Shown piece after piece: positions 30,034 to 49,669 of a DNA stretch of 64,000 nucleotides (within the stretch, counting starts at the first letter, position 1; the number at the start of each line of letters is the position of its first letter). The DNA is from Candidatus Aenigmatarchaeota archaeon (GTDB lineage: Archaea > Aenigmatarchaeota > Aenigmatarchaeia > PWEA01), in assembly GCA_003553905.1 (NCBI GenBank), contig PWEA01000005.1, forward strand, positions 7,915 to 71,914, given 5' to 3'. The translations under genes and the position numbers were made by a program. The notes under the pieces were generated by a model, which was not told the origin of the DNA, did not search any database, and saw only the letters and a program-made list of their open reading frames with translations.

Positions 30034-30048
30034 GGGTGAAAAAATACC

Positions 30049-31107: not shown

Positions 31108-31158
31108 TGTAAGCGAAAGGCTTAAAAAGTTTAAGGAGGAAAAGTAAGGTGTGAAAAG

Positions 31159-31653: not shown

Positions 31654-31665
31654 AAGGTGATATAA

Positions 31666-33074: not shown

Positions 33075-33079
33075 GTTAC

Positions 33080-33578: not shown

Positions 33579-35861
33579 GTGGTTCAAATGCCATGTGATT
33601 ACGAATACAACCAAAAGGAAAATAAAATAGAAGTAAACTGCTCTGGATGCATCTACGGAAGTAGTGTAGCTGACTACGAGGAGTGTATGGCGAACACAAT
33701 CGATAAAATTCTTGAAGTAAAAGGAGTAGAATCGATTGTATTCAAAAACAGCCGTGAACACGAGTATCCGTATGAGCAGACAAAGCTCCTTGTAGAGATA
33801 GCCCAGGTTCTTAAGGATCTGACCAAAGACAAGGGTCTAAGGAAACTAAAGAAGCTAGATGTACCGGGCTGCAACAAATATTTCCGGGAAAAATATTCGG
33901 AGCTACAGAATATAATCCTCGAAGAACTGAGCAAGGACCCAATAGGTACGTACATACATCTCAAAAGAAAGATAAGGCATCTCAAGATCCAATTAAAGGA
34001 AAATAAGGGTGGTTCACAGAACGAGTGCAGAGAAAAGTACATGAACAAAATACTTATACCAATAAAGGACGAGATCGAGAACACGGGAATGATACAGGGG
34101 GTTAAAAACCAACTTTCCGGATATCGACCAGGCAGGAGAGACGCCTACAGAGAGCTTTTTTACCCTTCTGTACGACCAAACTTCATGCGGACAAAATACA
34201 TGAGACAAGCCCCCGAAGAAGGTAAGAAGGTAGAACATTATGATGTAGGAACTTCTGATGTAGATATATACAGACTGCCTGAAGAAACCAGGCCTCTATA
34301 CCACTTTTCCCCTCCCGAGTTCAAACTCGAGGAGGAAGAATATAAGATACTAGACGAGGCTCAGAGATATATCAGCGAGCATAGACCCGAAACTACCGAG
34401 TTTGCAGAGTCGAAGAGAACCAGGGAAGTTTTCACATCAATATGCAGGGACCTGGTGAAAGACATAGCGGATAATAAGAAAACTGTACTGGAAACCGATC
34501 AGGTCGAAAGACTCACAACCATACTAGGTAGATATACAGGTGGTTTGGGGATACTTGAAGCACTCCTGGAGGACAAAAGAATCCAAGACATATACATAAA
34601 CTCACCAATAGGAAACAAACCGATCTTCGTCAACCACGAAAAATATGGAGAATGCAAAACAAATATAATACCCACCCAAGACGATGCAGAAAGCTGGGCA
34701 ACAAAACTAAGACTTTCGAGTGGAAGACCATTGGACGAAGCCAATCCGGTTCTTGATGCATCCATAGAGGTACCCGGAGGAAGTGCAAGGATAACGGTCA
34801 TAGCTCCCACGCTTTCACCTGAAGGTATTGGTTTTGCTATAAGAAGACACAGAGAAGATCCATGGACATATCCACTGTACTTGAGACCGGATATAAACTA
34901 TATAAATCCACTTTTTGCAGGTCTCATGAGCTTCATAATCGATGGTGGACGTACGTTCCTCGTTGGGGGTGGAAGGGGTTCTGGAAAAACATCACTTCTC
35001 GGAGCCTCGATGCTTGAAATGAAGAGAGACTGGAGGATACTTACAGCAGAGGATACATTAGAGCTACCAGTCGAAAGGCTCAAAAGGCTTGACTACGATG
35101 CACAGAGATTAAAGTCAAGGTCTGTTATAACCCAGGTAGAAACCGAACTTCCTGCGTCGGAAGCAATACGAACGGCCCTTCGTCTGGGTGATTCAGCACT
35201 AGTTATAGGTGAAGTAAGGAGCACGGAAGCAAAGGCCCTCTACGAAGCCATGCGTATAGGAGCGATGGCTAAAACGGTCGCCGGTACTATACATGGTGAA
35301 TCAGCATACGGTCTTTTCGACCGTGTTGTAAACGACCTCGGAGTCCCAAAGACATCTTTCAAAGCTACAGACATCGTAGTTATATGCAACAGGATAAAGA
35401 GCGCATCCGGTCTCGAGGAAATAAGAAGAGTAACAAGTGTTACTGAAGTAAGAAAACACTGGTCCGATGATCCCAGGGCAGAGGATGGATTTGTTCCTCT
35501 TATGAAATATTCGGCAGAAGATGACGAGTTAAAACCGACCGACACTCTACTAAACGGTGAGTCAGAGGTTCTGAATAAGATATCTTCACAGGTCAAGGAC
35601 TGGGCAGGAAGGTGGGATAGGGTCTGGGAAAATATAGAGCTCAGGGCTAAGGTTAAAAAAGCCATAACCGACTATGCACTCGAAACAGGTGAAGAAGATC
35701 TAATGGAAGCCCCGTTTGTTGTCAAGAGCAACAGCAAGTTCCGCCTTATCATGGACGAGGTAAAAAAGAAGACAGGTTACATAGACCCGGATGAAACCTT
35801 CGATAAGTGGGAACAATGGCTCAAGGATCAGATAAAGACTGGTGAATTTAGGAATGTTTAA
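33579..35861 (+). CDS. Type II/IV secretion-system ATPase (FlaI/TadA/PilB/VirB11 family) with extended N-terminal region
   Basis: Walker A GGGRGSGKTSLLGA, Asp box ILTAEDTLEL, GEVRSTEA and a TIHGE His box. 760 aa from the GTG at 33579; the alternative ATG at 33588 would be leaderless. Confidence 0.8.
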   Translation: MVQMPCDYEYNQKENKIEVNCSGCIYGSSVADYEECMANTIDKILEVKGVESIVFKNSREHEYPYEQTKLLVEIAQVLKDLTKDKGLRKLKKLDVPGCNKYFREKYSELQNIILEELSKDPIGTYIHLKRKIRHLKIQLKENKGGSQNECREKYMNKILIPIKDEIENTGMIQGVKNQLSGYRPGRRDAYRELFYPSVRPNFMRTKYMRQAPEEGKKVEHYDVGTSDVDIYRLPEETRPLYHFSPPEFKLEEEEYKILDEAQRYISEHRPETTEFAESKRTREVFTSICRDLVKDIADNKKTVLETDQVERLTTILGRYTGGLGILEALLEDKRIQDIYINSPIGNKPIFVNHEKYGECKTNIIPTQDDAESWATKLRLSSGRPLDEANPVLDASIEVPGGSARITVIAPTLSPEGIGFAIRRHREDPWTYPLYLRPDINYINPLFAGLMSFIIDGGRTFLVGGGRGSGKTSLLGASMLEMKRDWRILTAEDTLELPVERLKRLDYDAQRLKSRSVITQVETELPASEAIRTALRLGDSALVIGEVRSTEAKALYEAMRIGAMAKTVAGTIHGESAYGLFDRVVNDLGVPKTSFKATDIVVICNRIKSASGLEEIRRVTSVTEVRKHWSDDPRAEDGFVPLMKYSAEDDELKPTDTLLNGESEVLNKISSQVKDWAGRWDRVWENIELRAKVKKAITDYALETGEEDLMEAPFVVKSNSKFRLIMDEVKKKTGYIDPDETFDKWEQWLKDQIKTGEFRNV

Positions 35862-37938
35862 GGGCGATAAGGATGACCGCAAAGAAGAGATAAAAAGACT
35901 TCTGGAAAGAAGAAACGAAGGACTCCGGATGCCCGAAAGCAGAAAAAGAACATTCACATCGAGGGAGTACGAAACATTCTTAAAAGAGGAACAGAAGCAG
36001 AGGAAACTATCACTTTACGAAAAACTATGTAATATTGCCGAAAATATAATAGTCGTAGAGCCGTCCGATGAAAAGAGGGAGGAGATGGAACGGTCAATAG
36101 ATATGACCTACATGAATATAACCCCTGAGGGGGCCTACTCTCTAGCCATTCTGTCCGGTATCGGCATCTTTGTCACTGCGATATTACTTATGGTACTGGG
36201 TCTTGCCTCGATAATATTTGGTCTCCTCATGTTTATACTGGGTGGTGTATCAATATACCTCCTCGCAGAATATCCAAATTCGGAGGCCAGGCTTTTCCGG
36301 GTCAAAGCTGCCGATCAGATTATGCTTGCTGTGATATACATGGTCATATACATGCGTACTTCTCCTAACCTCGAAGGTGCAGTTAAATTCACCGCCAAGC
36401 ATCTAGGAGAGCCCCTTTCACTTGATTTCAAAAAACTGCTCTGGGATGTAGAAACCCGAAACTATGTTTCGATGAGGGAAGCCCTTTCCGCCTACCTGGA
36501 AAAGTGGGAAGACAACAAAACCTTCGTGGAAGCTATACAGATAATAGAAGACTCGATGCAACAAGCCGGAGAAAAAAGAAAAAGAATGCTCAACGAAGCA
36601 ATAAACACGATGATGACAGGCTCAAGAGAGATGATGAAAAACTACTCAAACAAACTCGAACTTCCTATACTCGTAATACACGCCCTCGGTATAATGCTTC
36701 CTATCATGGTTCTGATAATGTTCCCTATAATAATGCTTATGCTTGAAGAAACTATCCGGCCTGCGTTTCTCATTCTGGGCTACAATGTTATACTACCGCT
36801 CATAATATATCTAACAGGAAAAAGAACGCTGGAGTACAGGCCGATGGGATTTTCTGAGCCTGACATATCAAAACATCCGGACCACATTCCCTCTGGAATG
36901 ATAAACATCGCAGGTAAGGAGATAAAGATATGGCCTATATCTGTTCTTCTGTCGGTTCCTGTGATAATTACCGGTATCTATCTGGTTAACTTCTACGCAG
37001 GTACAGATATATCAACTCAGCTCTACACGTCAATAATCATAACCATCGGAATAGCACTGGGTCCTTCGAGCTACTTCTACCTCGACTCCAGCGCTAAGCT
37101 CAAGATAAGGAAGGAGGTGAAGGATATCGAGGATGAATTTTCGGAGTCTCTTTTCTCACTGGGTAATATACTCAAGCTGGGTAAGCCAATGGAGAGGGCC
37201 ATGGAAGAAGCTGCTGTAAAAAATAAGGATATGGACATATCGAAGATGTTCGATATAGTCGTAAACAATATCAAAAAGGGTGGGATGAACATCAGGAAGG
37301 CTTTTTTCGATGATGAATACGGTGCAGTGTGGCATTATCCTTCGACACTCATAATATCCGTCATGAAAATCGTCATAGATGCGACAAAAAAGGGTTCCGA
37401 TATTGTCTCTAGGTCAACTATATCAATATCAAAGTATCTACAACAGCTCGATGAGATAGAAGAAGACCTGAAAAATATGCTCTCTTCGGAGACTACTTCT
37501 ATGCAGTTCCTGGGAACGTTTCTTGGACCCTTTGTGGCAGGTGTTTCTGTGGCCATGGCTGCTATAATGATATCAATATTCCAAGGTGTGGGTGGTTCAT
37601 TGGATGCACTGGCAGGAACCGGAACCTCACCCGGTGTTGGAGGTCTAGGTGGGATGGGACTCAATGAAGGCCTAGTAGGTGGATGGGGTTCAGCAGAAAA
37701 TATGATACCCATATCATGGATACAGGTTGTCGTAGGTCTCTATGCTATCCAGACATCCTACCTTCTTTCTATGCTAACATCCGGCATAGAAAACGGTCCC
37801 GGTGACCAAATAAAGAAAAGACAGTCCGCAGCAATTATGATAATGATAGGTGTAATAGTCTACGGTGTTTCAATTGCTGTGGTTTGGCAAATATTCGGAG
37901 GGCAGATATCTGAACTTCTAGCAGCAACCATAAACTGA
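35842..37938 (+). CDS. FlaJ/TadC-like polytopic membrane platform protein
   Basis: 698 aa. Cytoplasmic helical domains alternate with clusters of TM helices, the two-T2SS_F-domain layout. Overlaps the ATPase by 20 nt, suggesting translational coupling. Confidence 0.7.
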   Translation: MNLGMFKGDKDDRKEEIKRLLERRNEGLRMPESRKRTFTSREYETFLKEEQKQRKLSLYEKLCNIAENIIVVEPSDEKREEMERSIDMTYMNITPEGAYSLAILSGIGIFVTAILLMVLGLASIIFGLLMFILGGVSIYLLAEYPNSEARLFRVKAADQIMLAVIYMVIYMRTSPNLEGAVKFTAKHLGEPLSLDFKKLLWDVETRNYVSMREALSAYLEKWEDNKTFVEAIQIIEDSMQQAGEKRKRMLNEAINTMMTGSREMMKNYSNKLELPILVIHALGIMLPIMVLIMFPIIMLMLEETIRPAFLILGYNVILPLIIYLTGKRTLEYRPMGFSEPDISKHPDHIPSGMINIAGKEIKIWPISVLLSVPVIITGIYLVNFYAGTDISTQLYTSIIITIGIALGPSSYFYLDSSAKLKIRKEVKDIEDEFSESLFSLGNILKLGKPMERAMEEAAVKNKDMDISKMFDIVVNNIKKGGMNIRKAFFDDEYGAVWHYPSTLIISVMKIVIDATKKGSDIVSRSTISISKYLQQLDEIEEDLKNMLSSETTSMQFLGTFLGPFVAGVSVAMAAIMISIFQGVGGSLDALAGTGTSPGVGGLGGMGLNEGLVGGWGSAENMIPISWIQVVVGLYAIQTSYLLSMLTSGIENGPGDQIKKRQSAAIMIMIGVIVYGVSIAVVWQIFGGQISELLAATIN

Positions 37939-37987
37939 GGGAGGAAAACAATAAAAACAAGGTAAAACAAGGTTTACCTAGGTCCAC

Positions 37988-39286
37988 ATGAAGCCGCTCA
38001 ACGACCAGATAGGAGCTTCAACTCTTATCATGATAATAGCCGGGGTAATAATAATACTCATAGCGGGCAGCTTTGCAACAGTACTGATGAGTCGTATTGC
38101 CCAAGACGTACTTGGACAAAGTGTCATGTGTGATACTTTTTGTTCGATGCAGTCTACTGTTAAAGAAGTGACAACACTGGATATGATACCAAGCCCCGGA
38201 CTTACCGGTACACTTGGTTATATTGCCATAGGGGCTGTAATAGGTTCGGTGGTACCGGGAATAGGAACCGCGATAGGAGCAGCGATAGGAGCAATTGTTG
38301 GAGTTGCTATAGCCGCAGTACAACATTTTGCAAGCTGGCTGGGAAGAGATGATGAAGATGTTGCAAGAGATCTGGCAATAGACTACTTGGTTCGCCCCGA
38401 AGGCATGGGTTGTTACTGTGGCGTGTCCAATGCCAGAGGAAAGTATATACACTTTCTGACACCCGGTCCTAGCTCAACCAGGCCACATGTGGCCGAGTTC
38501 CATCTAACAGACCAAACTCCGGAAAAACATCTCCAAGAAGAGATAATAGATACAGATGGAAACACTATATTCAAACACGGTGGTTATGGCCAAAAAAGTA
38601 ACTGTGAAGATGAACTTAGTAAAATAGATGAACTTGACAACGGTGAATACTTAGTCGAACTCGATATATATCCAGGGTGCATAATACTATCAACGACCGA
38701 TGACAACTGTGCAATATGGGCATTCAATGAAACCTTTGCAATAACCAATGAAGAAGGAAAGTCCATAAGGGAACAGGCTGAAGAACAGGATAAAATAATA
38801 TTCGCTAGCACGATAAGGTCCGATGACCCCGTAAACAGCCTGGGTATCGCAGAAGAGATAGAGGCAAGTGGCAGACACGAGTCCCAGAGGATGCTCCTCG
38901 AGCATTACGAAGAAGGTATACACCCATTCCAAGTTCACGTCCCTGTAGTTTGTAAATCTGAAGAAAGAACTGAAAGGCGTGTCCAGGATCCACTTGACAG
39001 GGCATGTAGAGAACAGTGCCATGACGGAAACGCACTTCTATGGGCTTCTAGGTGTTTCGAAGAACCAGAAGATGCCGGGGAAACCTACTATTCACTGGAA
39101 GAAGATTTTCTTCCAGAAGAATATGATGACACCAGAGACTTATGCCCTATGGAAGACGAAGACAACGGAGATGAAGACGGGGGGGAAGATGAAAACAACA
39201 ACGAAGATCGCGGTTATCCCTTCTGTCTCTGTAACACTCCTCGAAGTTATTCATGGGAACTGGACGAAGAATACGCAGAAATATAA
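37988..39286 (+). CDS. Pilin-like protein with Cys-rich acidic extracellular domain (family 1, paralog A)
   Basis: N-terminal hydrophobic helix. Motifs shared with family-1 paralogs: C.TFCSMQ, GMGCYCGV, YIHF, HLTDQTP, DGNTIF, SQRMLL, VVCKS, CREQC, LCP, PFCLC, SWELDEEY. An extra Gly-zipper hydrophobic segment (GAVIGSVVPGIGTAIGAAIGAIVGVAIAAV) is unique to this copy. Confidence 0.65.
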   Translation: MKPLNDQIGASTLIMIIAGVIIILIAGSFATVLMSRIAQDVLGQSVMCDTFCSMQSTVKEVTTLDMIPSPGLTGTLGYIAIGAVIGSVVPGIGTAIGAAIGAIVGVAIAAVQHFASWLGRDDEDVARDLAIDYLVRPEGMGCYCGVSNARGKYIHFLTPGPSSTRPHVAEFHLTDQTPEKHLQEEIIDTDGNTIFKHGGYGQKSNCEDELSKIDELDNGEYLVELDIYPGCIILSTTDDNCAIWAFNETFAITNEEGKSIREQAEEQDKIIFASTIRSDDPVNSLGIAEEIEASGRHESQRMLLEHYEEGIHPFQVHVPVVCKSEERTERRVQDPLDRACREQCHDGNALLWASRCFEEPEDAGETYYSLEEDFLPEEYDDTRDLCPMEDEDNGDEDGGEDENNNEDRGYPFCLCNTPRSYSWELDEEYAEI

Positions 39287-39307
39287 TATCTTGAATTTGT
39301 GATGTAA

Positions 39308-40408
39308 ATGATTGACGAAAAAGGTGGTTCCTTATTACTCATAATAGTTGTAGGTATAATATTATCCCTGATCGTTGGTTCTTTGATGACCGGTGCATTT
39401 AGTGTGGTGGTGAGAACCGTAATCGGAACCGACCTGTCGTGTCCTACATTCTGTGCAGTTCAAGCAGACATAGAGGAGTATAGCATGGCAGATATAATGC
39501 TACCATCGATTCTACCATTCATAGAGGAAAGCTCTGAGGCAACGGCTCATAAAATAGCAGACTGGATAATACAACCGGAAGGGCTTGGCTGTTACTGCGG
39601 CGTCAAAGCAAGAAGTGGAAGATACATCCACTTCCATACAGGTTCACCTGGAGAAAGGTACATAAGAGAGCTTCACTTGACGGACCAAGATCCACATATA
39701 CATCTAGACTATCATGTCAGTGATTCCGATGGAAACACGTTGTTCGACCACAGCTTCGACAAGAGCAGCTGTGAGGAAGACATAAGTAACATAGAAGAAG
39801 TACAGTACTATCAAACCGTTGGCTGTGTAATCGTGGTTAACTCCGAGGGAGGGTACTGCTCTATACATGTAATAGGAGAAGGTTCAGTTATAGAAAACAA
39901 CATAGGTGAAAGCATACACGATCAGGTTGAAATAAAGGAAACATTGACGACAAACTATGAAGACAACGATCCCATTTCATTTTTTAAAATCGGCGACAGA
40001 TACAGCGTACCTCGATTTGCATACGGGACAGGAGATGTCCTGACCTACACGATAGGAACCCAGCCCTACCAGCACGATTCCCAACGAATGCTCCTCCGGG
40101 ACTACGACGAATACCTAGGAGCTAAGTTCGCTCTCTATGCTCCTGTTGTCTGTAGGGCATCAACAAGAGAAGGACAAGATACTCAGACAGAACTCGATGA
40201 AAAATGTAGAAAGCAATGTAAGGAAGACGATAAGATTTTCTTCTCTTCTGCATGCCAAGATATCCCCAGGGAAGGTTATGACATGCTACGTGACGAATAC
40301 CGCGAAGACACTCTCTGTGAAAAGGATGACGAGGGCCCATACTGCAGATGTGTGCACGAGAAACGATACTACTGGGAGGTAGACGAAGATTATTCGAGAG
40401 AAGAATGA
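39308..40408 (+). CDS. Class III signal-peptide (type IV pilin-like) protein with Cys-rich domain (family 1, paralog B)
   Basis: MIDEKG then GSLLLIIVVGIILSLIVGSL. Shared motifs SCPTFCAVQADIEEYS, GLGCYCGV, YIHF, HLTDQDP, DGNTLF, SQRMLL, VVCRAS, CRKQC, LCEK, PYCRC, YYWEVDEDY. Confidence 0.7.
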   Translation: MIDEKGGSLLLIIVVGIILSLIVGSLMTGAFSVVVRTVIGTDLSCPTFCAVQADIEEYSMADIMLPSILPFIEESSEATAHKIADWIIQPEGLGCYCGVKARSGRYIHFHTGSPGERYIRELHLTDQDPHIHLDYHVSDSDGNTLFDHSFDKSSCEEDISNIEEVQYYQTVGCVIVVNSEGGYCSIHVIGEGSVIENNIGESIHDQVEIKETLTTNYEDNDPISFFKIGDRYSVPRFAYGTGDVLTYTIGTQPYQHDSQRMLLRDYDEYLGAKFALYAPVVCRASTREGQDTQTELDEKCRKQCKEDDKIFFSSACQDIPREGYDMLRDEYREDTLCEKDDEGPYCRCVHEKRYYWEVDEDYSREE

Positions 40409-40447
40409 AAAAGTTAAAAACTAAACGAAAACCTATTAAATGATAAT

Positions 40448-40561
40448 ATGGAAGTAAGTATGTCTGTCTTGCTCTGGGTGATTGTAGCCTTTGCTCTGTT
40501 TGTATTTGTAGTAATATTTACCGGTATGTTTTTCGCCGACACGTTTGGAATTTTAATATAA
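40448..40561 (+). CDS. Possible 37-aa hydrophobic micro-protein
   Basis: MEVSMSVLLWVIVAFALFVFVVIFTGMFFADTFGILI is a single TM helix lying between two pilin genes, below the ORF-track cut-off. Confidence 0.2.
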   Translation: MEVSMSVLLWVIVAFALFVFVVIFTGMFFADTFGILI

Positions 40562-40572
40562 TCAAGGATACT

Positions 40573-41850
40573 ATGATCGATCAAAAGGGAGCATCAGTAA
40601 AGGCACTCTTCGTAATCATAATTGTAATGGTGGGTGCATGGGTTTTAATACAAAGTATTGGTCCTATAACCAAAGCTGCCATGGGAACCGAAGTATCCTG
40701 TCCGCTTTTCTGTGATATACAGTCAGGTATAGAAGACTACTCGAGATGGGCATGGTGGCCGGGGTGGCTTGGAGGAAGTGTAAGCTGGTCCGATATATTC
40801 AAAAATGAACTAAGAAGAAACATGGTAGCACCTAAATCAATGGGATGTTACTGTGGTGTACAGGAAGAAAGAGGAAAGTTTATCCATTTCCAGGGGAGTA
40901 CCAGTAGTATACGCGAATTCCACATGACGAATCAGGATCCATTGGTACATCTTAGCCTTGAGGCCGGTCCATTTGACCACAGGCCTACTTCATCGCAAAT
41001 TCGTAATATGTGTCGATCCATCATAGAAGATTACGGAGAAGAGTTCAGTCCACCTGTATACGATCAAAGCGATCTCAATAGAGTTCAAGCATGCATGATT
41101 GTTTCAGAATCACCGGGTTGTGCAATATGGAGATTTGAAGAGGGTTTTGTCATTAGGAGAGACTCTGATGATTCTATATGGGAACAGGCACAGGAACAGG
41201 GAAAAGACATAGGCTTTTTTTCCTTTAATAGAGACGAAGACCCTGTTTCGGATCTAAGCATAGGTGAAACTGTGTATGTATCGGGATCAAAGGACCCCTC
41301 CCAACGGATGTTACTCCAAAAATACGAAAGCGGCGATCAAGATTTCAATCTCTCTGCATCCGTGGTATGTAAAAGTGTTAGAATGGATGAATCTATGCCC
41401 ACAAACGAACTAGACAGGGCTTGCAACGAATACTGCTCGGATGAAAATCTTTTCTTCATGAATTCTAACTGCCTAGAGGAGAGGAGAGGTGGTTATGATA
41501 TCCTTCCAGAAGAATACATAGAAAATGGGAGGGATAAACTCTGCCCTGAAGGAAGAGAACTTCCCTTCTGTCTCTGTGCAGGAGAAAAGGACTACTACTG
41601 GGAAACATACTGGGAAGATTTCTACACAGTAACGGTAGAAACCCAAGGTAGTGGAAATGTGGACATAAGCCCCGACCTGGACGAGTATCACGAAGATCAG
41701 GAAGTATCATTGGAAGCAGAAGCGTACAACGATTGGGAATTTAGCCATTGGGAAGGAGATCATCCACATGGACAAAAAGAAGATGCAGAGATAACGATCA
41801 CGGTAGATGGAGATATGGAAGTAACTGCAGTATTCGAATCGACATCATAG
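40573..41850 (+). CDS. Class III signal-peptide protein with Cys-rich domain (family 1, paralog C) and C-terminal InlB B-repeat-like domain
   Basis: MIDQKG then ASVKALFVIIIVMVGAWVLI. Shared motifs SCPLFCDIQSGIEDYS, MGCYCGV, FIHF, HMTNQDP, SQRMLL, VVCKS, CNEYC, LCPEG, PFCLC, YYWE. C-terminus YTVTVETQGSGNVDISPDLDEYHEDQEVSLEAEAYNDWEFSHWEGD..ITITVDGDMEVTAVFE fits the divergent InlB B-repeat pattern. Confidence 0.7.
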   Translation: MIDQKGASVKALFVIIIVMVGAWVLIQSIGPITKAAMGTEVSCPLFCDIQSGIEDYSRWAWWPGWLGGSVSWSDIFKNELRRNMVAPKSMGCYCGVQEERGKFIHFQGSTSSIREFHMTNQDPLVHLSLEAGPFDHRPTSSQIRNMCRSIIEDYGEEFSPPVYDQSDLNRVQACMIVSESPGCAIWRFEEGFVIRRDSDDSIWEQAQEQGKDIGFFSFNRDEDPVSDLSIGETVYVSGSKDPSQRMLLQKYESGDQDFNLSASVVCKSVRMDESMPTNELDRACNEYCSDENLFFMNSNCLEERRGGYDILPEEYIENGRDKLCPEGRELPFCLCAGEKDYYWETYWEDFYTVTVETQGSGNVDISPDLDEYHEDQEVSLEAEAYNDWEFSHWEGDHPHGQKEDAEITITVDGDMEVTAVFESTS

Positions 41851-41910
41851 GACAGGTCGTGGATTAAAACTTATAATACGCGGTAAACATACATAATAGG
41901 GAGATGTTCC

Positions 41911-42093
41911 ATGAATACGGATTCAAAAAGCCTCTTTTCCAGAGGTGAAATAAGTATACAGGCCCTGGTAGTGATAATTCTAATGTTGATAGGGATCATA
42001 ATCATTGTTATAATATCATCGGGCGTCGGTGACTTTGGAGGAGATGCGTCTTCGACTATAATGGAATATTTAGCAGATGCTATAGGTGCATAA
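41911..42093 (+). CDS. Short pilin-like protein (60 aa)
   Basis: SLFSRG then EISIQALVVIILMLIGIIIIVI. Almost entirely the signal/helix segment, so a candidate structural pilin. Confidence 0.5.
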   Translation: MNTDSKSLFSRGEISIQALVVIILMLIGIIIIVIISSGVGDFGGDASSTIMEYLADAIGA

Positions 42094-42097
42094 AGTT

Positions 42098-42250
42098 ATG
42101 GTACATAATAAAAAGGGGTTCATAAGTTTCGCTATGATTGTGATCATAGTTCTTATAGCTCTAACGGTCGGTATTCTGCTTATACACACCTTTTGGGGAG
42201 GCGGTGAAGGATTGTTAAACCTACTCATCCAAAGGCTTCAACAGGTATAG
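42098..42250 (+). CDS. Short class III signal-peptide pilin (50 aa, not in ORF track)
   Basis: MVHNKKG then FISFAMIVIIVLIALTVGILLIHTFWGGGEGLLNLLIQRLQQV. Textbook archaeal prepilin N-terminus. ATG at 42098, TAG at 42248..42250. Confidence 0.5.
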   Translation: MVHNKKGFISFAMIVIIVLIALTVGILLIHTFWGGGEGLLNLLIQRLQQV

Positions 42251-42259
42251 GTATAAAAT

Positions 42260-42406
42260 ATGTCTACATTTAGCGACACATTAACTGTTTTCGAAAACAA
42301 TACAAAGATAATATTTGCCTTAGTGGTGTTTGCTCTGCTTATAGGCATACTTTACTACACGATAGGTCCTATAATAGATACATTACTGGGGGCTATAGGT
42401 TATTGA
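42260..42406 (+). CDS. Small membrane protein (48 aa, not in ORF track)
   Basis: MSTFSDTLTVFENNTKIIFALVVFALLIGILYYTIGPIIDTLLGAIGY. Single TM helix, no KG cleavage motif. Confidence 0.35.
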   Translation: MSTFSDTLTVFENNTKIIFALVVFALLIGILYYTIGPIIDTLLGAIGY

Positions 42407-42407
42407 T

Positions 42408-43124
42408 ATGAACGTAATCAACAAAAAAGGTTCAAGATCACAGAGTGAGTTCATATTTCTTGCAATAAAGGCAGTGATAGGTATCTTGGTTATAGGAATT
42501 GTTGCCTTGAGTGTTAGGGGCATGGAAACAGGCTGCAGTACACATGACGAAAATCCAACGGCATGTATAAGAAATACCGAATGCAGGCCTGCAGTTAGAA
42601 GAAAGAGAAACATATTCACGTTCTATATTGATCCTGCTCGTACCATAGACCTAATCTACCATACAAAAATAACCGGTGATATAGAATGCCGAGACGCGAT
42701 AAGGACTCCTAACAACAGATACCACGCCGCAGAGGATGCTCAGTGTGTATGTCCTGTTGGATGGGAAGTAATTTTAGACAAGGATGATCAGTACTACGGA
42801 GTCTGCAGACTACCAGGAACTAACGACTATCACCCATGCGAGTATCCACCAGACGGCGAACAGCAAGAAGCAGAATTCAAAGACATGTGTGAAGATGGAG
42901 ACAGATACCACGGAGAAGTCTGGATCGACGGAACAGATGAGGAAGCTCCAAATATGTGCTGCGATGATGGAGATACAAAGGAATGTGACTCCGATAACAT
43001 AGACGAAGAATGTGGCGATTTGGTTTGTATTGAAATAGAGGTCGAGGACGAAGACGGAGAAGAGGAAGAAACCACTTTCTGGATAGAAGAAGAAAGCGTA
43101 CCTGATATAGAATACTTCCTTTAA
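42408..43124 (+). CDS. Class III signal-peptide protein with Cys-rich acidic domain (family 2, paralog A)
   Basis: MNVINKKG then SRSQSEFIFLAIKAVIGILVIGIVAL. Shared with the next gene: ETGCSTHDENPTACIRNTECRPAV, GDIECRDAIRTPNNRYHAAEDAQCVCPVGWE, YYGVC, YHGEVWIDG..MCCDDGDTKECD. Confidence 0.7.
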   Translation: MNVINKKGSRSQSEFIFLAIKAVIGILVIGIVALSVRGMETGCSTHDENPTACIRNTECRPAVRRKRNIFTFYIDPARTIDLIYHTKITGDIECRDAIRTPNNRYHAAEDAQCVCPVGWEVILDKDDQYYGVCRLPGTNDYHPCEYPPDGEQQEAEFKDMCEDGDRYHGEVWIDGTDEEAPNMCCDDGDTKECDSDNIDEECGDLVCIEIEVEDEDGEEEETTFWIEEESVPDIEYFL

Positions 43125-43151
43125 AATACACAAAATAAAAGATGAAGCGGA

Positions 43152-43802
43152 ATGTTTTCAAAAAAAGGTACTGCTAAATCGCAGGAAGAAACACTTTGGT
43201 TTATAATCAAGATAGCTATAATGTTGATAGGAATGGTAGTTTTGATTGTTTCTTTACTCGAGATGGAGGCAGGCTGCAGTAGACACGATGAAAATCCATC
43301 GGCATGTGTAAGCGATGAAAACTGCAGACCCGCAGTTAAAACATTTGACCTAGGATGGGGTTTATATGGTTTCTCTCAAATCGAAGTAGTGGGTGAGATC
43401 GAATGCCGGGAATCTGTGAGAAAACCCAATACAAGATATCATGCAGCCCAAGATGGAAAATGCGTATGCCCTGGTTTCTGGAACGAAATCATGGACAGGG
43501 ACCATGACTACTTTGGTGTGTGTTATACTGAATATGACGGAGAAGAAATGTACTATCCATGCCAGTACGGCCTGGATGTTCAGGCTGAGGAAATAAAAGA
43601 CAGATGCGATACCGACAACGGTCTTAGAATGCACGGAGAAGTATGGGGCTCCGGTTGGAATGTTCCAGATAGATGCTGCGACGATGGTGAAGTAAAGAAA
43701 TGTGGGATAGATAAAAGAGGTGAAACTTGTGCAGACCATACCTGTAAATCCGGTCCAGCAATGCATGATGTTGTTATAGTCAACTACTATTGGCAGCCAT
43801 AA
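43152..43802 (+). CDS. Class III signal-peptide protein with Cys-rich domain (family 2, paralog B)
   Basis: MFSKKG then TAKSQEETLWFIIKIAIMLIGMVVLIV. EAGCSRHDENPSACVSDENCRPAV, GEIECRESVRKPNTRYHAAQDGKCVCPGFWNE, YFGVC, MHGEVWGSG..RCCDDGEVKKCG. Confidence 0.7.
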   Translation: MFSKKGTAKSQEETLWFIIKIAIMLIGMVVLIVSLLEMEAGCSRHDENPSACVSDENCRPAVKTFDLGWGLYGFSQIEVVGEIECRESVRKPNTRYHAAQDGKCVCPGFWNEIMDRDHDYFGVCYTEYDGEEMYYPCQYGLDVQAEEIKDRCDTDNGLRMHGEVWGSGWNVPDRCCDDGEVKKCGIDKRGETCADHTCKSGPAMHDVVIVNYYWQP

Positions 43803-43847
43803 ACCACATTTACACCTTTCAAAAAGATTTAAACGAACACGACAAAG

Positions 43848-44270
43848 TTGTATATGATGAACACCCCAGCAAAGGGCATAGGCGTAGGAAAGTCTCTTAT
43901 GTTAATATTGATACTGGTAGTACTCATATTTACAACGGTCGTAATAGGTGACATCTTTACATCTGTTCTTGGTATGGGTATAGGAGATGAGTTCCACCTC
44001 ACAATGGGTGAGTTGTCTGTATCCTACACTACATCTAGCTCTTTTCAGGAAAAAACAGAAATAGAAGAAAATCTTCCGATGGCCTGCGAAAGAGTTGTAT
44101 TTAGAAACAACACACTAAAGGCTTATCTAGAACATGATGAATTCTACTTCGTTTCCTACACTACACAGGAAATGGATGAAGATTTCGAGGTAGAATGTGA
44201 TTCCTTTGGTGGGGTGAAGTTTATTGACGGGAGGATTGAAGCCTCTAGCCCGGTTGATGGAACATTGTGA
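43848..44270 (+). CDS. Class III signal-peptide (pilin-like) protein
   Basis: MNTPAKG then IGVGKSLMLILILVVLIFTTVVIG. 140 aa. Confidence 0.6.
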   Translation: MYMMNTPAKGIGVGKSLMLILILVVLIFTTVVIGDIFTSVLGMGIGDEFHLTMGELSVSYTTSSSFQEKTEIEENLPMACERVVFRNNTLKAYLEHDEFYFVSYTTQEMDEDFEVECDSFGGVKFIDGRIEASSPVDGTL

Positions 44271-45169
44271 TTATGATGACAAGGATAGATAACAAAGGAA
44301 CAACCGGAGGAGACTATATATGGTATATACTATTTGTGATAGTAACAATAACCTATCTATATGCCTTTTACGCAATATTCATGGCCGGTTCAACAGTAGA
44401 TGTTGAGGGAATTGAAAGAACTCAAGGAAGACTACAGGGTTCTGCTGCTTATACAAGATTGTTATCATATCCCAACTTCGTCTCGACGGGAGAGATCGGT
44501 GTATTCGATAAATCATCTCTCGATTCGAAGAACGGTACAGAGAAGCTAGAGGAACTCTACAACCCATCACTCTGGATTTATATTGAGATAGAAAACACCG
44601 AAAATGATGATAAGTATATATTCGGTACACCAGGACCAAAGAAGGCAACCGAAGAATGGATAGCTGAGGACGGGTATATGAGTACCTGGGACGATGAAGA
44701 TGAAATGAGCTTTTGGGATCATATGTCCGCCAAATATAGTACAATGGTAAACATAGACACCGGCGACGGCTTCGATCTAGCTAAACTACATTTTTACTTC
44801 CGACAAATACCCGATCCTGTATTGAGCCTGAAAAGGGGTGCCCATATAGCCAAGGAGGAAGGAAGCCATACAGTCACATTGTTTCACCCAACGTCAGGCT
44901 GTAAAATTTATGCACAAGATAGATATGGGAGAGCTCAGTGTTTCGTCCGCGAAGATCCTTTTGTAATAGATACAAGTCAATCTGATAAAATAAAGGACGA
45001 CTTCGGTGAATACATGCATCTGAAAGGCATAGAACTGAAGGCATTCGACGATGATGAGGAAGAGTTCGAGATAGACCCGCCCGGTAGGTTTACAGAAGGA
45101 AAGACGAGGTTAGAACTAGCCCACACCGGCGGCAAAACGGTAGAGTATGAAATAGTCGATAGTTGGTAA
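44267..45169 (+). CDS. Class III signal-peptide (pilin-like) protein
   Basis: MTRIDNKG then TTGGDYIWYILFVIVTITYLYAFYAIFMAG. 300-aa acidic globular domain. 4-nt overlap with the upstream gene. Confidence 0.6.
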   Translation: MIMMTRIDNKGTTGGDYIWYILFVIVTITYLYAFYAIFMAGSTVDVEGIERTQGRLQGSAAYTRLLSYPNFVSTGEIGVFDKSSLDSKNGTEKLEELYNPSLWIYIEIENTENDDKYIFGTPGPKKATEEWIAEDGYMSTWDDEDEMSFWDHMSAKYSTMVNIDTGDGFDLAKLHFYFRQIPDPVLSLKRGAHIAKEEGSHTVTLFHPTSGCKIYAQDRYGRAQCFVREDPFVIDTSQSDKIKDDFGEYMHLKGIELKAFDDDEEEFEIDPPGRFTEGKTRLELAHTGGKTVEYEIVDSW

Positions 45170-45170
45170 A

Positions 45171-45701
45171 ATGAAAAAAAGAATCGGTAAAAAGGGTGGC
45201 TTTATGATCTTGCTAGCTACGCTTATATTCACCGCCGTGTTCTTAATTACTTTGTTTATAGTCGGTCCCTTCGTTGGAGGAGCACAGATGGAAATAGAGG
45301 TAATGTCAGAAGACCCTGCCAGATTCAGTATAGAGAAAAATACGCTTCTAAGAACCAATGAAACAAAAAGAAAACTCATGGCTTTCGGAGAAGGAGACGG
45401 GTCGGTAGACGAATCTATCGCCAAGACAAGCGACAAATTTGGAGAAGCTGATTCGGGCTCTCATATACTGCTTTTCCAGTTCGAAGGGGACGATGACATA
45501 GAAAGGGTGGGTTTCCTTTGTTTAGACGACTGCGGGCATATAAGTGGATATGATGAAGAGTTTAAAGCAATTCTACAAAATTCAAAAGTAATAGCACCTA
45601 GACCCATAATGCTCCCGGAAGGTGGAATGGGATCCTCATATTCGATCTATTATGATCCAGATGAAGTCGCATCAGATATTATGGACGGTGTGATGTACTG
45701 A
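45171..45701 (+). CDS. Class III signal-peptide (pilin-like) protein
   Basis: MKKRIGKKG then GFMILLATLIFTAVFLITLFIVG. 176 aa. Confidence 0.6.
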   Translation: MKKRIGKKGGFMILLATLIFTAVFLITLFIVGPFVGGAQMEIEVMSEDPARFSIEKNTLLRTNETKRKLMAFGEGDGSVDESIAKTSDKFGEADSGSHILLFQFEGDDDIERVGFLCLDDCGHISGYDEEFKAILQNSKVIAPRPIMLPEGGMGSSYSIYYDPDEVASDIMDGVMY

Positions 45702-45708
45702 TGATAAA

Positions 45709-46272
45709 ATGTTAGGAGATAAAGGAATAAAGGTTACGATTGTGGTCTTAGCAGCCGTACTGATAGCCATCTCTCTGGCAACTACAGTAATTGTAGGAGT
45801 ACTATCATACCAAGGTCAGGAGCAGTCCTGGTTCGGGCAGAGTGAAAGAGTTACAGCAAAGGTTCAGTTTGACCATGCTCTGGAAGCTATAGAAGATTCG
45901 TTTTTGTTAGGTATATACTGGGGTATACGGGAATCAGGTAGCGACTGGGAAGACGCAAGTGAATCCCTTGAAGAAGAAATAGAGGAGAAAATAGATGATT
46001 ATCTGACTAAGTTAGAGGGTTTCTACAGAGGCGAATACGATACGCAACCGTTCCGACTCGAAACGATGATACAGATAAATGACGTCGATATAGAAGTAGA
46101 TTTGGATGAGGACGAGGAAACCATAGATAGGGTAGAATTATCAGGTAATCTGACTTCTTACAGGAACCAGCCCTCGATAACAATATCCGATGATTTCTAC
46201 TTCAGTGAAAACTTTAACGAAGACTATTCAGACCTCTATGACATGGCTCGTAATCCATTAGAAAATATGTAA
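45709..46272 (+). CDS. Class III signal-peptide (pilin-like) protein
   Basis: MLGDKG then IKVTIVVLAAVLIAISLATTVIVGV. 187 aa, acidic. Confidence 0.6.
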   Translation: MLGDKGIKVTIVVLAAVLIAISLATTVIVGVLSYQGQEQSWFGQSERVTAKVQFDHALEAIEDSFLLGIYWGIRESGSDWEDASESLEEEIEEKIDDYLTKLEGFYRGEYDTQPFRLETMIQINDVDIEVDLDEDEETIDRVELSGNLTSYRNQPSITISDDFYFSENFNEDYSDLYDMARNPLENM

Positions 46273-46301
46273 ATTTTATAAGAAAGGGGGAGATATTTAA
46301 C

Positions 46302-47288
46302 ATGAAGATGAATCAAAAGGGATCCAAGTCTATGATGGCTTTAGTAGTTCTTATAATTCTAGGTGTTTTGGTAATATTTGTTTTTTCCACAACATCGGGA
46401 TCTTTTTTGGAGATTTCAGAAGGTCTTATGGACATAGGCGAGGAGGAGGCAAGAAGGGTTCATAGGAAGTTCAAATACCCTATTTTAAAACACGAGCTCC
46501 CGGAAGAAGAATTTCCCGGAGAGGGGTCAGGACGGATTGTGACCTCATGTAAATCAATAGGTTCAGAAGGTGAATATCAGCTCCAAGACTCTATAAGATG
46601 TTCAGATCACGAACCAATCCGAGAGTTCAGCGGGACGCTGGACGGTCGTGGTCACAGTATATATGGTTTAGATGAGCCACTATTTGAAACGATATCTTCC
46701 TCGGGAACCGTAAAAAATATTAGAATCTCGGAAGTAGATATATTTGAGGAAGGTCCTGCAGGTGGTCTTTCTGTAGAAAACCAAGGAACCATCAAAAGAA
46801 TCCGTATTTCCGGGATGGTTCAAGGCGAAAGTAACGTTGGCGGTCTTGTTGGAACAAACAGTGGAGAGATACGGAAATCTTCCTCCACGGCAAATGTAGA
46901 TGGAGATCAAAATGTAGGAGTACTGGTAGGACAACATACCTCCGGTTCCGTAACAAATTCTTACACGGTCGGCTCTGTAGAAGGTATATCAAATGTAGGG
47001 GGACTAATAGGATCAGGAAGTGGACAGGTAGATAAAACATACGCAGCTAGTTTTGTAACCGGACTCACAAACAAACAAGGCTTGGTCGGTTCCGGTTCTG
47101 CTGGGGCAGTGACAAACTCCTTCTGGAGTACTGACACATCCGGAATTCTTCCTGGAGATATCTCTGGAAGTGTTATAGGAACACCGAAAGTTGACGAAGC
47201 CATGGAAGACAAGGCAACATTTGTTTCCACAAGAACGGAAGGCCTCGTAGATCCCTGGGACTTCGATGAAATATGGACTATGGGATAA
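46302..47288 (+). CDS. Class III signal-peptide protein with GLUG-like repeat domain
   Basis: MKMNQKG then SKSMMALVVLIILGVLVIFVF. Central repeats NVGGLVGTNSGEI..NVGVLVGQHTSGSVTNSYTVGSVEGISNVGGLIGSGSGQV..GLVGSGSAGAVTNSFW fit the GLUG motif (GGLVG.N.G.I.NSYATG.V.G). Confidence 0.65.
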   Translation: MKMNQKGSKSMMALVVLIILGVLVIFVFSTTSGSFLEISEGLMDIGEEEARRVHRKFKYPILKHELPEEEFPGEGSGRIVTSCKSIGSEGEYQLQDSIRCSDHEPIREFSGTLDGRGHSIYGLDEPLFETISSSGTVKNIRISEVDIFEEGPAGGLSVENQGTIKRIRISGMVQGESNVGGLVGTNSGEIRKSSSTANVDGDQNVGVLVGQHTSGSVTNSYTVGSVEGISNVGGLIGSGSGQVDKTYAASFVTGLTNKQGLVGSGSAGAVTNSFWSTDTSGILPGDISGSVIGTPKVDEAMEDKATFVSTRTEGLVDPWDFDEIWTMG

Positions 47289-47290
47289 AA

Positions 47291-47452
47291 ATGAACTACG
47301 CTCTTCGAACCAGAGGACTACAGTTTAATATCCTTGTTTATATAATACTTGGAATACTTTTGATAGGTGTGATTGCTGCTCTTGCCCTGACTACAGAGGG
47401 GCTCTTCGAAGGATTTTTTGACCTAATGAAAGAACTGATACTTTCAGGGTGA
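47291..47452 (+). CDS. Short class III signal-peptide pilin (53 aa, not in ORF track)
   Basis: MNYALRTRG then LQFNILVYIILGILLIGVIAALAL. ATG 47291, TGA 47450..47452. Confidence 0.45.
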   Translation: MNYALRTRGLQFNILVYIILGILLIGVIAALALTTEGLFEGFFDLMKELILSG

Positions 47453-47497
47453 GGACAGACCGTAAGTTTTAAATCCAATAGGTAACAACCTTTAACC

Positions 47498-47755
47498 ATG
47501 AAAATCAAGTCCGGGAAGAGATTAAAGCCTCTACATCTCGGAGCTCTGGTTTTGAGTTTGATAGTGATCCTATCCATCATAGTTTTTAGTCTGGACGTAA
47601 CAGAAGGACCAGGTGAGGAAGATGAGATGGGCAGGTCTTGTGTAGGATACCTACAGAGGAATTGTTGCAGTAACCCCGGAGCAGTTCGATGCCAAGAATT
47701 CGAAAACGAAATATGGACACACCAAGAAGATCCATTTGATGTATGTTGTGAATAA
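47498..47755 (+). CDS. Small TM-anchored Cys-rich protein (family 3)
   Basis: N-terminal helix LHLGALVLSLIVILSIIVF, then SCVGYLQRNCCSNPGAVRCQEFE..DVCCE, a C..CC..C..CC pattern shared with the next gene. Confidence 0.5.
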   Translation: MKIKSGKRLKPLHLGALVLSLIVILSIIVFSLDVTEGPGEEDEMGRSCVGYLQRNCCSNPGAVRCQEFENEIWTHQEDPFDVCCE

Positions 47756-47758
47756 ACT

Positions 47759-48070
47759 ATGTTAAGTAAAAAGGGTATGGACGCGATAAGAATAATAAGG
47801 GTATTTATAATAACATTACTCATTCTCTTTGCTCTTCTTGCCCTCTGGGTAGGCACAGGAGATGCAGGTCTAACGGAAATAGAGTTCGATGGAAAGATGA
47901 GGATAGCCTGTAATAGATTTGAAAACAGGGGTTGTTGTAGAAGCTACGACGAAGAAGATCCCGGACAGTGTGCTGTAGATAAGGTATGGGAAGGCTACGA
48001 CGAAGAAGAAATGGACGAAGAGCTTATAGAAAGGCTGGAAGAAGTCGATTGGGAACAAAGGTGTTGTTGA
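47759..48070 (+). CDS. Class III signal-peptide Cys-rich small protein (family 3)
   Basis: MLSKKG then MDAIRIIRVFIITLLILFALLAL. IACNRFENRGCCRSYDEEDPGQCAVD..EQRCC. Confidence 0.55.
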   Translation: MLSKKGMDAIRIIRVFIITLLILFALLALWVGTGDAGLTEIEFDGKMRIACNRFENRGCCRSYDEEDPGQCAVDKVWEGYDEEEMDEELIERLEEVDWEQRCC

Positions 48071-48071
48071 A

Positions 48072-48323
48072 ATGAAAGAAAAGGGTATATCGCTTGCGAT
48101 AAGGACCGTTGTAATCTTGATTATCTCTATACTCATACTACTTGCAGTTATCACCATGTTTACAGATGTATGGGATGTAAGTCCCTTTGAAGACACTAAA
48201 GGAAATATTTCCGAGGAATACGGACCGGATTGGGGTAATGGGGAAGAAAATGGCCAAGAAAGTTACAATACCTTTTCTTTAAGCAGTCTATCCGAAACCA
48301 CACATTCACTGTCTAGTCTTTAA
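48072..48323 (+). CDS. Class III signal-peptide (pilin-like) protein
   Basis: MKEKG then ISLAIRTVVILIISILILLAVITMF. 83 aa, S-rich tail. Confidence 0.55.
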   Translation: MKEKGISLAIRTVVILIISILILLAVITMFTDVWDVSPFEDTKGNISEEYGPDWGNGEENGQESYNTFSLSSLSETTHSLSSL

Positions 48324-48329
48324 TCAATA

Positions 48330-48513
48330 GTGCGCCTGCCGGGAGTTCCCGAATCCCTCAGGAGAGGCATTCACATTATCTTCCGTGAACGTTTTGTCTT
48401 CTGCAAAAAGATTCTTTTGAACCCGGGCTTCGAGCATGGGAGGCTCGAGTCTTACCCAAAGGACGTAGACTTCGTCCACGTCGATCTCTAGGCCAGACTA
48501 GACCACAGGCGCA
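48330..48513. ncRNA. Candidate structured ncRNA (identity unresolved)
   Basis: A ~184-nt GC-rich island in AT-rich DNA between convergent genes. Terminal 9-bp helix GUGCGCCUG / CAGGCGCAC. A nested CCGGG / CCCGG helix encloses hairpins GGGAguuCCC, CCUCaggaGAGG and UUCAC..GUGAA. Further 3'-half hairpins CGAGC..GCUCG, GGACG..CGUCC and CUAG..CUAG. No ORF. Confidence 0.3.
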
Positions 48514-48538
48514 CGTTCTTATCCTTGTATTTTATAAC

Positions 48539-49669
48539 TTAAGTCTTTAATCCATGGCCTGTCACAATACAAACTACTTTTTCTCCCTGTCTGAAATTTT
48601 CTCTATTTTTCAGTATCCCTGCTAGCGCAACCGCACCTGCTTCTTCTGCATATATTCCTTCCCTTTTGGCTAGAACCTGTTTCGCCTCCAAAATATCTTT
48701 ATCGCTCACAGTAATACCCGTTCCTTCGCTTTCCCTCAAAGCCATGATAGCTTGGTCTCCGTCCAAGGGCTCTCCACATGATATTGCGTCCGCCACCGTA
48801 TCAGGTTGATCTATAACATCAGGTTTCTCCCGACCCTTGTTTAATGCCCCCACGACGGAATTGCAGCCCTTTGACTGAACACCAACCATCTCAGGACATT
48901 TCTTCAACAAACCTGTAGTCCTCAGCTCACAGAAACCTTTCCAAACGCCATGTATAAGGGTTCCGTTTCCGATGGGTGCAACAACTTTGTCAACCTCAGC
49001 CTGGTCGCCTATCTCATGACCTACTGTCTTTTCACCCTCGCCTCTGTAAGGATAGTCTCCCATGAGGTACATATCATCTTCTTCTTTGTCTTCCCATGCC
49101 CTCTCCTCTGCGTCATTGTAATCGTCGCTCACCTCTATAACCTCAGCACCGTGTTCTCTCATATGCTTTAGCTTCGGGCTCGCTACACCATGAGGTACAT
49201 ATATTCTTGCTTCAACGCTTGCCCTCGCACAGTAGGCAGCTATCGAAGAACCCATATTTCCGGTCGTGGCGGTAACTATCTCTTCGGCACCATGCTCCAG
49301 AGCCTTTCCAAGCTCGACGGAAGTTCCTCTGTCCTTGAAGCTCCCTGTAGGGTTCAAACTCTCCATCTTGAAGTAAAGGTCTATTCCTAGTTTCTCGCCT
49401 AAGCTTGTTGACTTTAAAAGAGGTGTTCCGCCCTCACCCATCCTTACTATAAAATCGGGGTCAAGGACAGGTAAAAGTTCCTTATATCTCAAGTGAGAAA
49501 AATTCCTTTCTCTCAAAAGATCCCAAGAAAGCTTGTTTTTTACCTCGTTGTAATTGTAAAGAACATCGACAGATGAATGGCATTTCTTACATGAATATCT
49601 TATTTCGTCTGCAGTATATACTTCACCGCACCCGACACAAACAAGGCCTTGTACATGCATACAATACAT
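48539..49669 (-). CDS. thrC: Threonine synthase
   Basis: N-terminal Zn-ribbon-like CVGCGE..CKKCHS, the PLP-lysine motif SLNPTGSFKDRG and GNMGSSIAAY. Confidence 0.8.
   Translation of the reverse strand: MYCMHVQGLVCVGCGEVYTADEIRYSCKKCHSSVDVLYNYNEVKNKLSWDLLRERNFSHLRYKELLPVLDPDFIVRMGEGGTPLLKSTSLGEKLGIDLYFKMESLNPTGSFKDRGTSVELGKALEHGAEEIVTATTGNMGSSIAAYCARASVEARIYVPHGVASPKLKHMREHGAEVIEVSDDYNDAEERAWEDKEEDDMYLMGDYPYRGEGEKTVGHEIGDQAEVDKVVAPIGNGTLIHGVWKGFCELRTTGLLKKCPEMVGVQSKGCNSVVGALNKGREKPDVIDQPDTVADAISCGEPLDGDQAIMALRESEGTGITVSDKDILEAKQVLAKREGIYAEEAGAVALAGILKNRENFRQGEKVVCIVTGHGLKT

Follow-up and report, generated by a model that had tools for sequence, protein, structure and literature searches.

Conserved small genes for putative helix-only pilin-like proteins in a type IV pilus operon of a Candidatus Aenigmatarchaeota archaeon

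DPANN archaea need physical attachment to their hosts, and most of the proteins encoded at their pilus loci cannot be recognised. Previous surveys have described 'dark matter' pilus islands in these organisms, in which an ATPase gene and a TadC-like gene stand together with unrecognisable signal-peptide proteins, the latter being predicted to represent a variety of pilins (Makarova et al. 2019, PMC6393860; 2016, PMC4858521). In one clade of nanoarchaeal ATPases, no pilins could be identified (PMC4858521). The pilins of the Tad/Flp type have 40-60 residues and no globular domain, and one of them, Caulobacter crescentus PilA (45 aa when mature), builds the filament alone as a continuous helix with archaeal-type packing; the Tad system is itself thought to derive from archaeal systems (PMC10710030). 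The major pilin in Methanococcus maripaludis, EpdE (MMP1685, arCOG06620), is made as a precursor of 74 aa with a mature form of 62 aa, and the equally small pilins of this species include the minor MMP1283/EpdD and dispensable ones (PMC3875500). The EpdE family is devoid of a globular domain (bioRxiv 10.64898/2026.04.22.720090).

We analysed a 64,000-nt stretch of a Candidatus Aenigmatarchaeota contig (PWEA01000005.1, assembly GCA_003553905.1), called the window below. Contigs of NCBI GCA_022257665.1 and of several ENA and Logan assemblies match it at 99.9% identity. Positions 33579-48323 of its + strand are occupied by a single co-directional string of genes, a type IV pilus operon, whose products are an ATPase of the FlaI/TadA/CpaF type, a putative platform protein of the TadB/C type and about 16 proteins with N-termini like those of prepilins (Table 1). 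The ATPase matched the NCBIfam models for FlaI (2e-40) and the TadA family (1e-32), both under their equivalog cut-offs, and its top PDB sequence matches were A. fulgidus GspE (2OAP), CpaF and FlaI. Its relatives were found at 71 genome loci across DPANN, the nearest ones (75-85% identity) in Candidatus Aenigmatarchaeota MAGs, soda-lake sediment bins included, and those with about 50% identity in Aenigmatarchaeota, Woesearchaeota and Nanoarchaeota. The platform protein itself gave no Pfam match in a direct search; many of its homologues (31-68% identity) contain PF00482 (T2SSF), and several are named 'Flp pilus assembly protein TadB' by JGI. Downstream of the platform gene, the products of 16 of 18 genes start with a short polar stretch that ends in [KR]G, and continue with a hydrophobic helix. 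This prepilin-like motif is carried by 13 larger proteins of secreted type, and the only two products devoid of it are those of the 48-aa and 37-aa ORFs. No prepilin peptidase (Peptidase_A24) was found among the scanned polytopic ORFs of the window, which yielded only a rhomboid protease and a SpoIIM-like protein.

Table 1. Genes and gap of the pilus operon, with positions in the window. A slash marks the predicted cleavage site.
Feature	Position	Strand	Remarks
Assembly ATPase, FlaI/TadA/CpaF family, 757-760 aa, with Cys-rich N-terminal extension	33579..35861	+	Pfam T2SSE 1e-15
Putative platform protein, polytopic, TadB/C / T2SSF type, 694 aa	35854..37938	+	Start overlaps the end of the ATPase gene
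Three paralogous Cys-rich proteins, 366-432 aa, with prepilin-like N-termini ([KI]G + helix)	37988..41850	+	
37-aa single-pass hydrophobic peptide	40448..40561	+	No prepilin motif; fails class III rule
Largest intergenic gap of the operon, 60 nt, with TATA-like TTAAA box and GGGAG Shine-Dalgarno-like motif	41851..41910	+	Precedes the 60-aa gene
60-aa protein, putative helix-only pilin-like (..FSRG/EISIQALVV..)	41911..42093	+	Predicted mature form 48 aa
50-aa protein, putative helix-only pilin-like (MVHNKKG/FISFAMIV..)	42098..42250	+	Predicted mature form 43 aa
48-aa single-pass membrane peptide, always third of the triplet	42260..42406	+	No prepilin cleavage motif
Seven proteins with prepilin-like N-termini (KG + helix): 238, 216, 138, 298, 176, 187 and 328 aa	42408..47288	+	
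53-aa protein, putative helix-only pilin-like (..RTRG/LQFNILVY..)	47291..47452	+	Predicted mature form 44 aa
Three small proteins with prepilin-like N-termini, 85, 103 and 83 aa	47498..48323	+	Operon end; syntenic in L072 and L073

Several of the larger products resemble adhesins. The third of the 366-432-aa paralogues contains a divergent InlB B-repeat domain (Flg_new_2, 7e-9, Pfam), the only family assignment within this trio (37988-41850), whose members have CxxFC...GCYCGV motifs in common; the 37-aa gene lies between the second and the third of them. The 328-aa protein shows adhesin-like GLUG / M26-N motifs (Pfam Glug, Peptidase_M26_N), while a Pfam scan of the six other proteins of the same run gave no match. 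Among these, the 216- and 238-aa proteins (42408-43802, +) are Cys-rich paralogues that share a GC(S)xHDENPxAC motif and have no family assignment. About 50 nt of the 238-aa gene (window 42614-42665) are missing at about position 10517 of contig L074, an ENA sequence of the same species, where the product is shortened to 219 aa; this points to strain-level length variation of a putative surface protein. At the end of the operon, the products of 85 and 103 aa are again Cys-rich, and the Pfam scan gave no match for them either.

The first-pass annotation had drawn attention to five small ORFs between these larger genes (60, 50, 48, 53 and 37 aa). All five were confirmed on the + strand, packed at spacings of 1-60 nt among larger genes of the same orientation. 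They had been thought to be unannotated, which is incorrect: gene calls for all five already exist in public assemblies of the same species (NCBI GCA_022257665.1, ENA and Logan), with no Pfam match. They are thus unnamed rather than unannotated. Two of them have an alternative start, a GTG at 42086 for the 50-aa gene (leading to 54 aa) and an ATG at 47273 for the 53-aa gene (leading to 59 aa).

Comparison with related genomes, which the first-pass annotation had advocated, revealed syntenic orthologues at the protein level. Depending on the ORF, the small genes are kept in the same order in four to six other Aenigmatarchaeota genomes. All five are represented in L001/L072, L005/L073 and L078 (these designations refer to the loci that we compared), while L002/L079 has only the triplet of 60, 50 and 48 aa, L080 the triplet and a weak match to the 37-aa ORF, and L008 a doublet of 65 and 45 aa at the position of the triplet. 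Orthologues of the 60-aa ORF and of the 50-aa ORF were found in six other genomes each, and those of the 48-aa ORF in five, at 44-79% identity. The 53-aa ORF has orthologues in L072 (60% identity), L078 and L073, all located after the GLUG gene and all with [KR]G at positions -2/-1. For the 37-aa ORF, orthologues were present in L001 (73%) and L005 (57%), with weaker ones in L078 and L080. A metagenome scan provided two loci only, both of which extend contigs already compared; they are the source of the 53-aa orthologues. Contigs L074-L077 add no evolutionary information, because they are 99.9% identical to the window.

We also compared synonymous and non-synonymous changes between the window and the closest genome (L001/L072), where the amino-acid identity of the five small ORFs is 60-79%. 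The Nei-Gojobori dN/dS ratios were 0.11, 0.30, 0.22, 0.17 and 0.23 for the 37-, 60-, 50-, 48- and 53-aa ORFs, respectively. The pooled ratio amounted to 0.21, with 93/566 non-synonymous and 91/175 synonymous sites changed (Fisher p = 2e-19), and the differences fell mostly on the third codon position (52:32:100 for positions 1:2:3). The large flanking genes had ratios of 0.14-0.16. The five small ORFs are therefore real genes under purifying selection.

The idea that they form a cluster of short pilin genes was supported for three of them. When we used a FlaFind-like rule (a [KR][GA] and, after it, a hydrophobic stretch of 20 uncharged residues with a mean Kyte-Doolittle value of at least 1.7), in keeping with the FlaFind check that had been suggested, the 60-, 50- and 53-aa ORFs passed, and these have the anatomy of class III signal peptides; the 48- and 37-aa ORFs failed and are not pilins by motif. 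Alignments indicated that the Gly at position -1, directly before the hydrophobic helix, does not vary within any of the three families, which cover 7 genomes (60 aa), 7 genomes (50 aa) and 4 genomes (53 aa). The residue at -2 is K or R in most orthologues, and S, E or T in three. Across 74 loci, motif-bearing ORFs of at most 70 aa were 7-fold enriched on the strand of the ATPase gene (29/3304, versus 6/4472 on the opposite strand), and short ORFs with KG and a helix were also observed at distant loci from Woesearchaeota and Nanoarchaeota (e.g., L039, L048, L051, L058 and L070).

Cleavage after the invariant Gly would release products with no globular domain. Each would start with a hydrophobic part of about 25 residues, go on with a hinge that is Gly-rich or of the TxEG type, and end in a tail of 12-17 residues, amphipathic and mostly acidic. 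For the 50-aa protein, AF2 predicted one continuous helix (residues 5-49, mean pLDDT 85), with a dip in confidence at the GGGEG stretch. Such Gly-rich stretches (GGGEG, GVGDFGGD) interrupt the helix, which counts against a pilin-like nature. Comparison of the families with hhalign gave a probability of 81% (E = 1e-5, nearly full length) for the 50- and 53-aa families and a weaker one, 48%, for the 60-aa family versus the 50-aa family. The families of 50 and 53 aa are thus likely to be paralogues, that of 60 aa being more distant.

Searches of Pfam, NCBIfam (E <= 0.1) and PDB sequences with the small peptides did not retrieve any family, Flp_Fap and other pilins included. Sub-threshold matches to the hydrophobic helices of PsaJ and MdfA were rejected as compositional. 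Foldseek gave no match with the single-helix model, as expected since the query is a lone helix, and in word-indexed searches for proteins similar to the 50- and 60-aa peptides nothing but the query came up. HMMER, run with the 60-aa peptide against 1.84 billion representatives, found three small relatives and two spurious large proteins, and the 60-aa family is, by sequence, restricted to this clade.

The 48- and 37-aa ORFs lack the [KR]G cleavage motif, and the 48-aa family has no Gly or Ala before its helix. In this family, Asp6 and Pro37 are invariant and Lys16 is present in 5/6 sequences (it is replaced by Thr in L078). Alignment of the two families to the pilin-like ones by hhalign covered only the transmembrane segment, with probabilities of 0.4-14%. 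We read both peptides as probable uncleaved single-pass membrane proteins. In more distant Aenigmatarchaeota, the platform gene is followed by 3-4 consecutive single-transmembrane ORFs of 40-79 aa (L009 14312-15036, L021 14447-15067, L024 14322-15041), mostly without KG motif, which suggests that loci of this family generally encode small membrane peptides.

The TTAAA box in the gap that precedes the 60-aa gene is invariant in four genomes. TATA-like boxes were also found ahead of at least five other operon genes, in AT-rich DNA. The TTAAA box is therefore weak evidence for a dedicated promoter, and the idea of an internal promoter unique to the 60-aa gene was downgraded. A scan for promoters and terminators with bacterial-type models did not rise above background.

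Additional observations concern the DNA on both sides of the operon. The genes directly upstream of that for the ATPase encode five membrane proteins, all polytopic and 159-200 aa long, of which at least four are paralogous (29479-32268, +), and two divergently oriented coiled-coil proteins (32280-33481, -). These genes are syntenic in L078-L081, and a similar membrane-protein segment was observed about 2 kb upstream of the ATPase gene in the distant loci L021, L024 and L044. A Pfam scan of these proteins gave no informative match; they may also belong to the pilus system. A non-coding stretch (48326-48540, +) that directly follows the final gene of the operon has counterparts in L072 (~10090-10250), L073 (~13560-13740) and L008 (~21750-21920). 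The blocks CCCGGGCTTCGAGCA and TGGGAGGCTCGAGTCTTACC are invariant across the four genomes, the ends are complementary (GTGCGCCTG ... CAGGCGCAC), and about 60 nt are inserted in two of the genomes. The energy of the predicted fold is -68 kcal/mol (z = -2.75 versus shuffles). There was no Rfam match even at E <= 1 and no tRNA; the stretch is possibly an undescribed structured RNA.

The explanation that we favour, with moderate confidence, is that the ORFs of 60, 50 and 53 aa are genes for minimal, helix-only proteins that resemble type IV pilins and belong to a pilus machine of the Tad/Epd kind; we are at least as confident that these small products are pilin-like and processed, their pilin-like character being well supported. 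The precursor would enter the membrane by its own hydrophobic helix and would be cut after the invariant Gly by a class III signal peptidase encoded outside the window. The platform protein and the FlaI/CpaF-type ATPase would then lift the mature helix of 43-48 residues out of the membrane and polymerise it, the hydrophobic N-terminal half being placed in the filament core and the short acidic/amphipathic C-terminal segment forming the surface, as in the Caulobacter Flp pilus. The many large proteins that share the same type of N-terminus would be minor or tip pilins with adhesin domains, and the 48- and 37-aa peptides uncleaved single-pass membrane partners. We infer cleavage and incorporation into a filament, as well as any assignment of a major or a minor status, from sequence. 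The motif and helix anatomy of the three small proteins and the linkage of their genes to those of the ATPase and the platform protein, which persists in the related genomes, are direct observations. What speaks against this explanation, besides the Gly-rich interruptions of the helix, is the lack of a prepilin peptidase among the scanned polytopic ORFs, of a Pfam match to any pilin family and of the Flp and EppA signatures, as well as the Ser, Glu or Thr at position -2 of some orthologues.

The adjacent 60- and 50-aa genes would be the operon's best candidates for the bulk filament subunit. That one of the small products is this subunit, i.e., the major pilin, is plausible, and we propose it tentatively. 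The points in its favour are the Tad/CpaF-like machine, the helix-only architecture, the adjacency of the two genes and the upstream 60-nt gap with its TTAAA and GGGAG motifs; those against it are the TATA-like boxes elsewhere, the fact that small pilins can be minor, the presence of 138-aa and 83-103-aa candidates in the operon and of the 228-aa protein elsewhere in the window, and the lack of a prepilin peptidase among the scanned polytopic ORFs. A conceivable but rather speculative extension is that the mature 60- and 50-aa products, perhaps as a heteropolymer, make up the body of a pilus with which halophilic Aenigmatarchaeota would attach to their hosts.

Three other readings of the small ORFs were considered. 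ORFs of 30-60 aa are common by chance (113 ORFs of at least 30 aa within 12 kb), and the small ORFs might have been non-coding ones in AT-rich intergenic DNA. This reading, which we consider as having practically no chance of being correct, was rejected because it is ruled out by the conservation tests: syntenic orthologues persist down to 22-44% amino-acid identity, the low pooled dN/dS ratio goes with an excess of third-position changes, and the ORFs are tightly packed among same-strand genes. It also appears quite improbable that the 60-, 50- and 53-aa products are uncleaved single-pass membrane proteins (platform stabilisers or regulators), in which KG and the helix would be a signal anchor. 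The co-conserved 48- and 37-aa neighbours are clearly of such a kind, runs of small transmembrane ORFs mostly without KG follow the platform gene in L009, L021 and L024, and position -2 is not always K or R. Yet the Gly at -1 is invariant in three families, over 4-7 genomes, the same motif is found on the 13 larger secreted-type proteins of the operon, and small motif-bearing ORFs are enriched on the operon strand.

A more serious competitor, unlikely as we judge it, is that the small ORFs encode minor or priming pilins, or pseudopilin-like assembly parts, and that the bulk subunit is another protein: the 138-aa protein (43854-44270), one of the proteins of 83-103 aa encoded at the end of the operon, the 228-aa protein of an unlinked gene (8297-8983) or the product of a gene elsewhere in the genome. 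According to the first-pass annotation, such shortness is typical of the major pilins of archaeal adhesive pili, but this holds only for the Methanococcus EpdE, those of Aap and Ups having 138-168 aa (PMC3875500). Furthermore, M. maripaludis has the gene for its major pilin at a place far away from the operon of the pilus (PMC3875500), and size fails to identify the major subunit because equally small pilins of this species have a minor role or can be dispensed with (PMC3875500). Synteny of the 138-aa protein extends to L001, L005, L078 and L080, and its AF2 model, a single-sequence prediction of low confidence (pLDDT 52), consists of an N-terminal helix and beta strands; this model is, however, unreliable and not good enough to look for similar folds. 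The 228-aa protein (+ strand, 25 kb from the pilus operon) has a class III-like N-terminus, MKKG/ISTSVLLAVIAATLLL, and no Pfam match; it could be an unlinked pilin or another substrate of the prepilin peptidase. What stands against a minor role of the small proteins is that the machine is Tad/CpaF-like, and in such systems the helix-only pilin of 40-60 aa is the major one (PMC10710030), and that the small genes are conserved as well as the large ones.

If the mature 60- and 50-aa products do make up the body of such a pilus, these proteins of 43-48 residues would be the shortest archaeal pilins known and would represent an archaeal counterpart, devoid of the Flp motif, of the bacterial Tad pilins, which would bear on the proposed archaeal origin of Tad pili. 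The uncleaved 48-aa peptide, which is always linked to them, would then be a new dedicated assembly partner. The three helix-only prepilin-like genes offer concrete candidates for filament subunits at a DPANN pilus locus, and ORF-length cut-offs of at least 60 aa hide core parts of such pilus systems. The advance is incremental, since short pilins are already established in archaeal and Tad systems.

Like Flp/Tad pilins, the small proteins described here would have mature forms of 43-48 residues with no globular domain, a hydrophobic N-terminal half, a polar C-terminal half and a predicted single helix, and their genes are partnered with those of a CpaF/TadA-like ATPase and a putative TadB/C-type platform protein. 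Unlike them, they have no Flp motif (G/XXXXEY; Glu5-Tyr6) and no match to Pfam PF04964 (Flp_Fap), the predicted mature N-termini being EISIQ, FISFA and LQFNI for the 60-, 50- and 53-aa proteins, respectively; they also have a Gly-rich hinge in the middle of the helix and an archaeal host. Another difference from Flp/Tad systems is that the operon contains three paralogues, two non-pilin peptides and about 13 large prepilin-like proteins. The small proteins share with the EpdE/Epd pilins their archaeal origin, their shortness, the lack of a C-terminal globular domain, a class III signal peptide ending in Gly and the company of many accessory pilins. They differ from EpdE, which has 62 aa when mature and is glycosylated, by their smaller size and the lack of a conserved sequon. 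EppA substrates have Gln at +1 and Glu at +5, whereas neither is a conserved signature here: the +1 residue is E/S/K/L in the 60-aa family, F/V/S in the 50-aa family and L/M/I in the 53-aa family, and there is no conserved Glu at +5. DUF361, the mark of EppA-processed Epd pilins, is also missing, as the small ORFs have no Pfam match at all. Moreover, EpdE is encoded away from its own operon, whereas the small genes lie within theirs, and the Epd platform is made of two genes, whereas that found here is a single protein. The layout of a truncated, helix-only pilin gene followed by a small separate partner gene is reminiscent of Geobacter sulfurreducens PilA-N and PilA-C (discussed in PMC10710030). 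This likeness is one of gene layout, and the 48-aa partner found here cannot supply a globular domain, because it is a transmembrane peptide with almost no extracellular part. The locus is of the same kind as the DPANN 'dark matter' islands. In the descriptions of these (PMC6393860, PMC4858521), helix-only ORFs of 37-60 aa were neither singled out nor tested; what is new here, for one clade of Aenigmatarchaeota, is the conservation of such small ORFs, the selection acting on them, the invariance of their motif and their paralogy.
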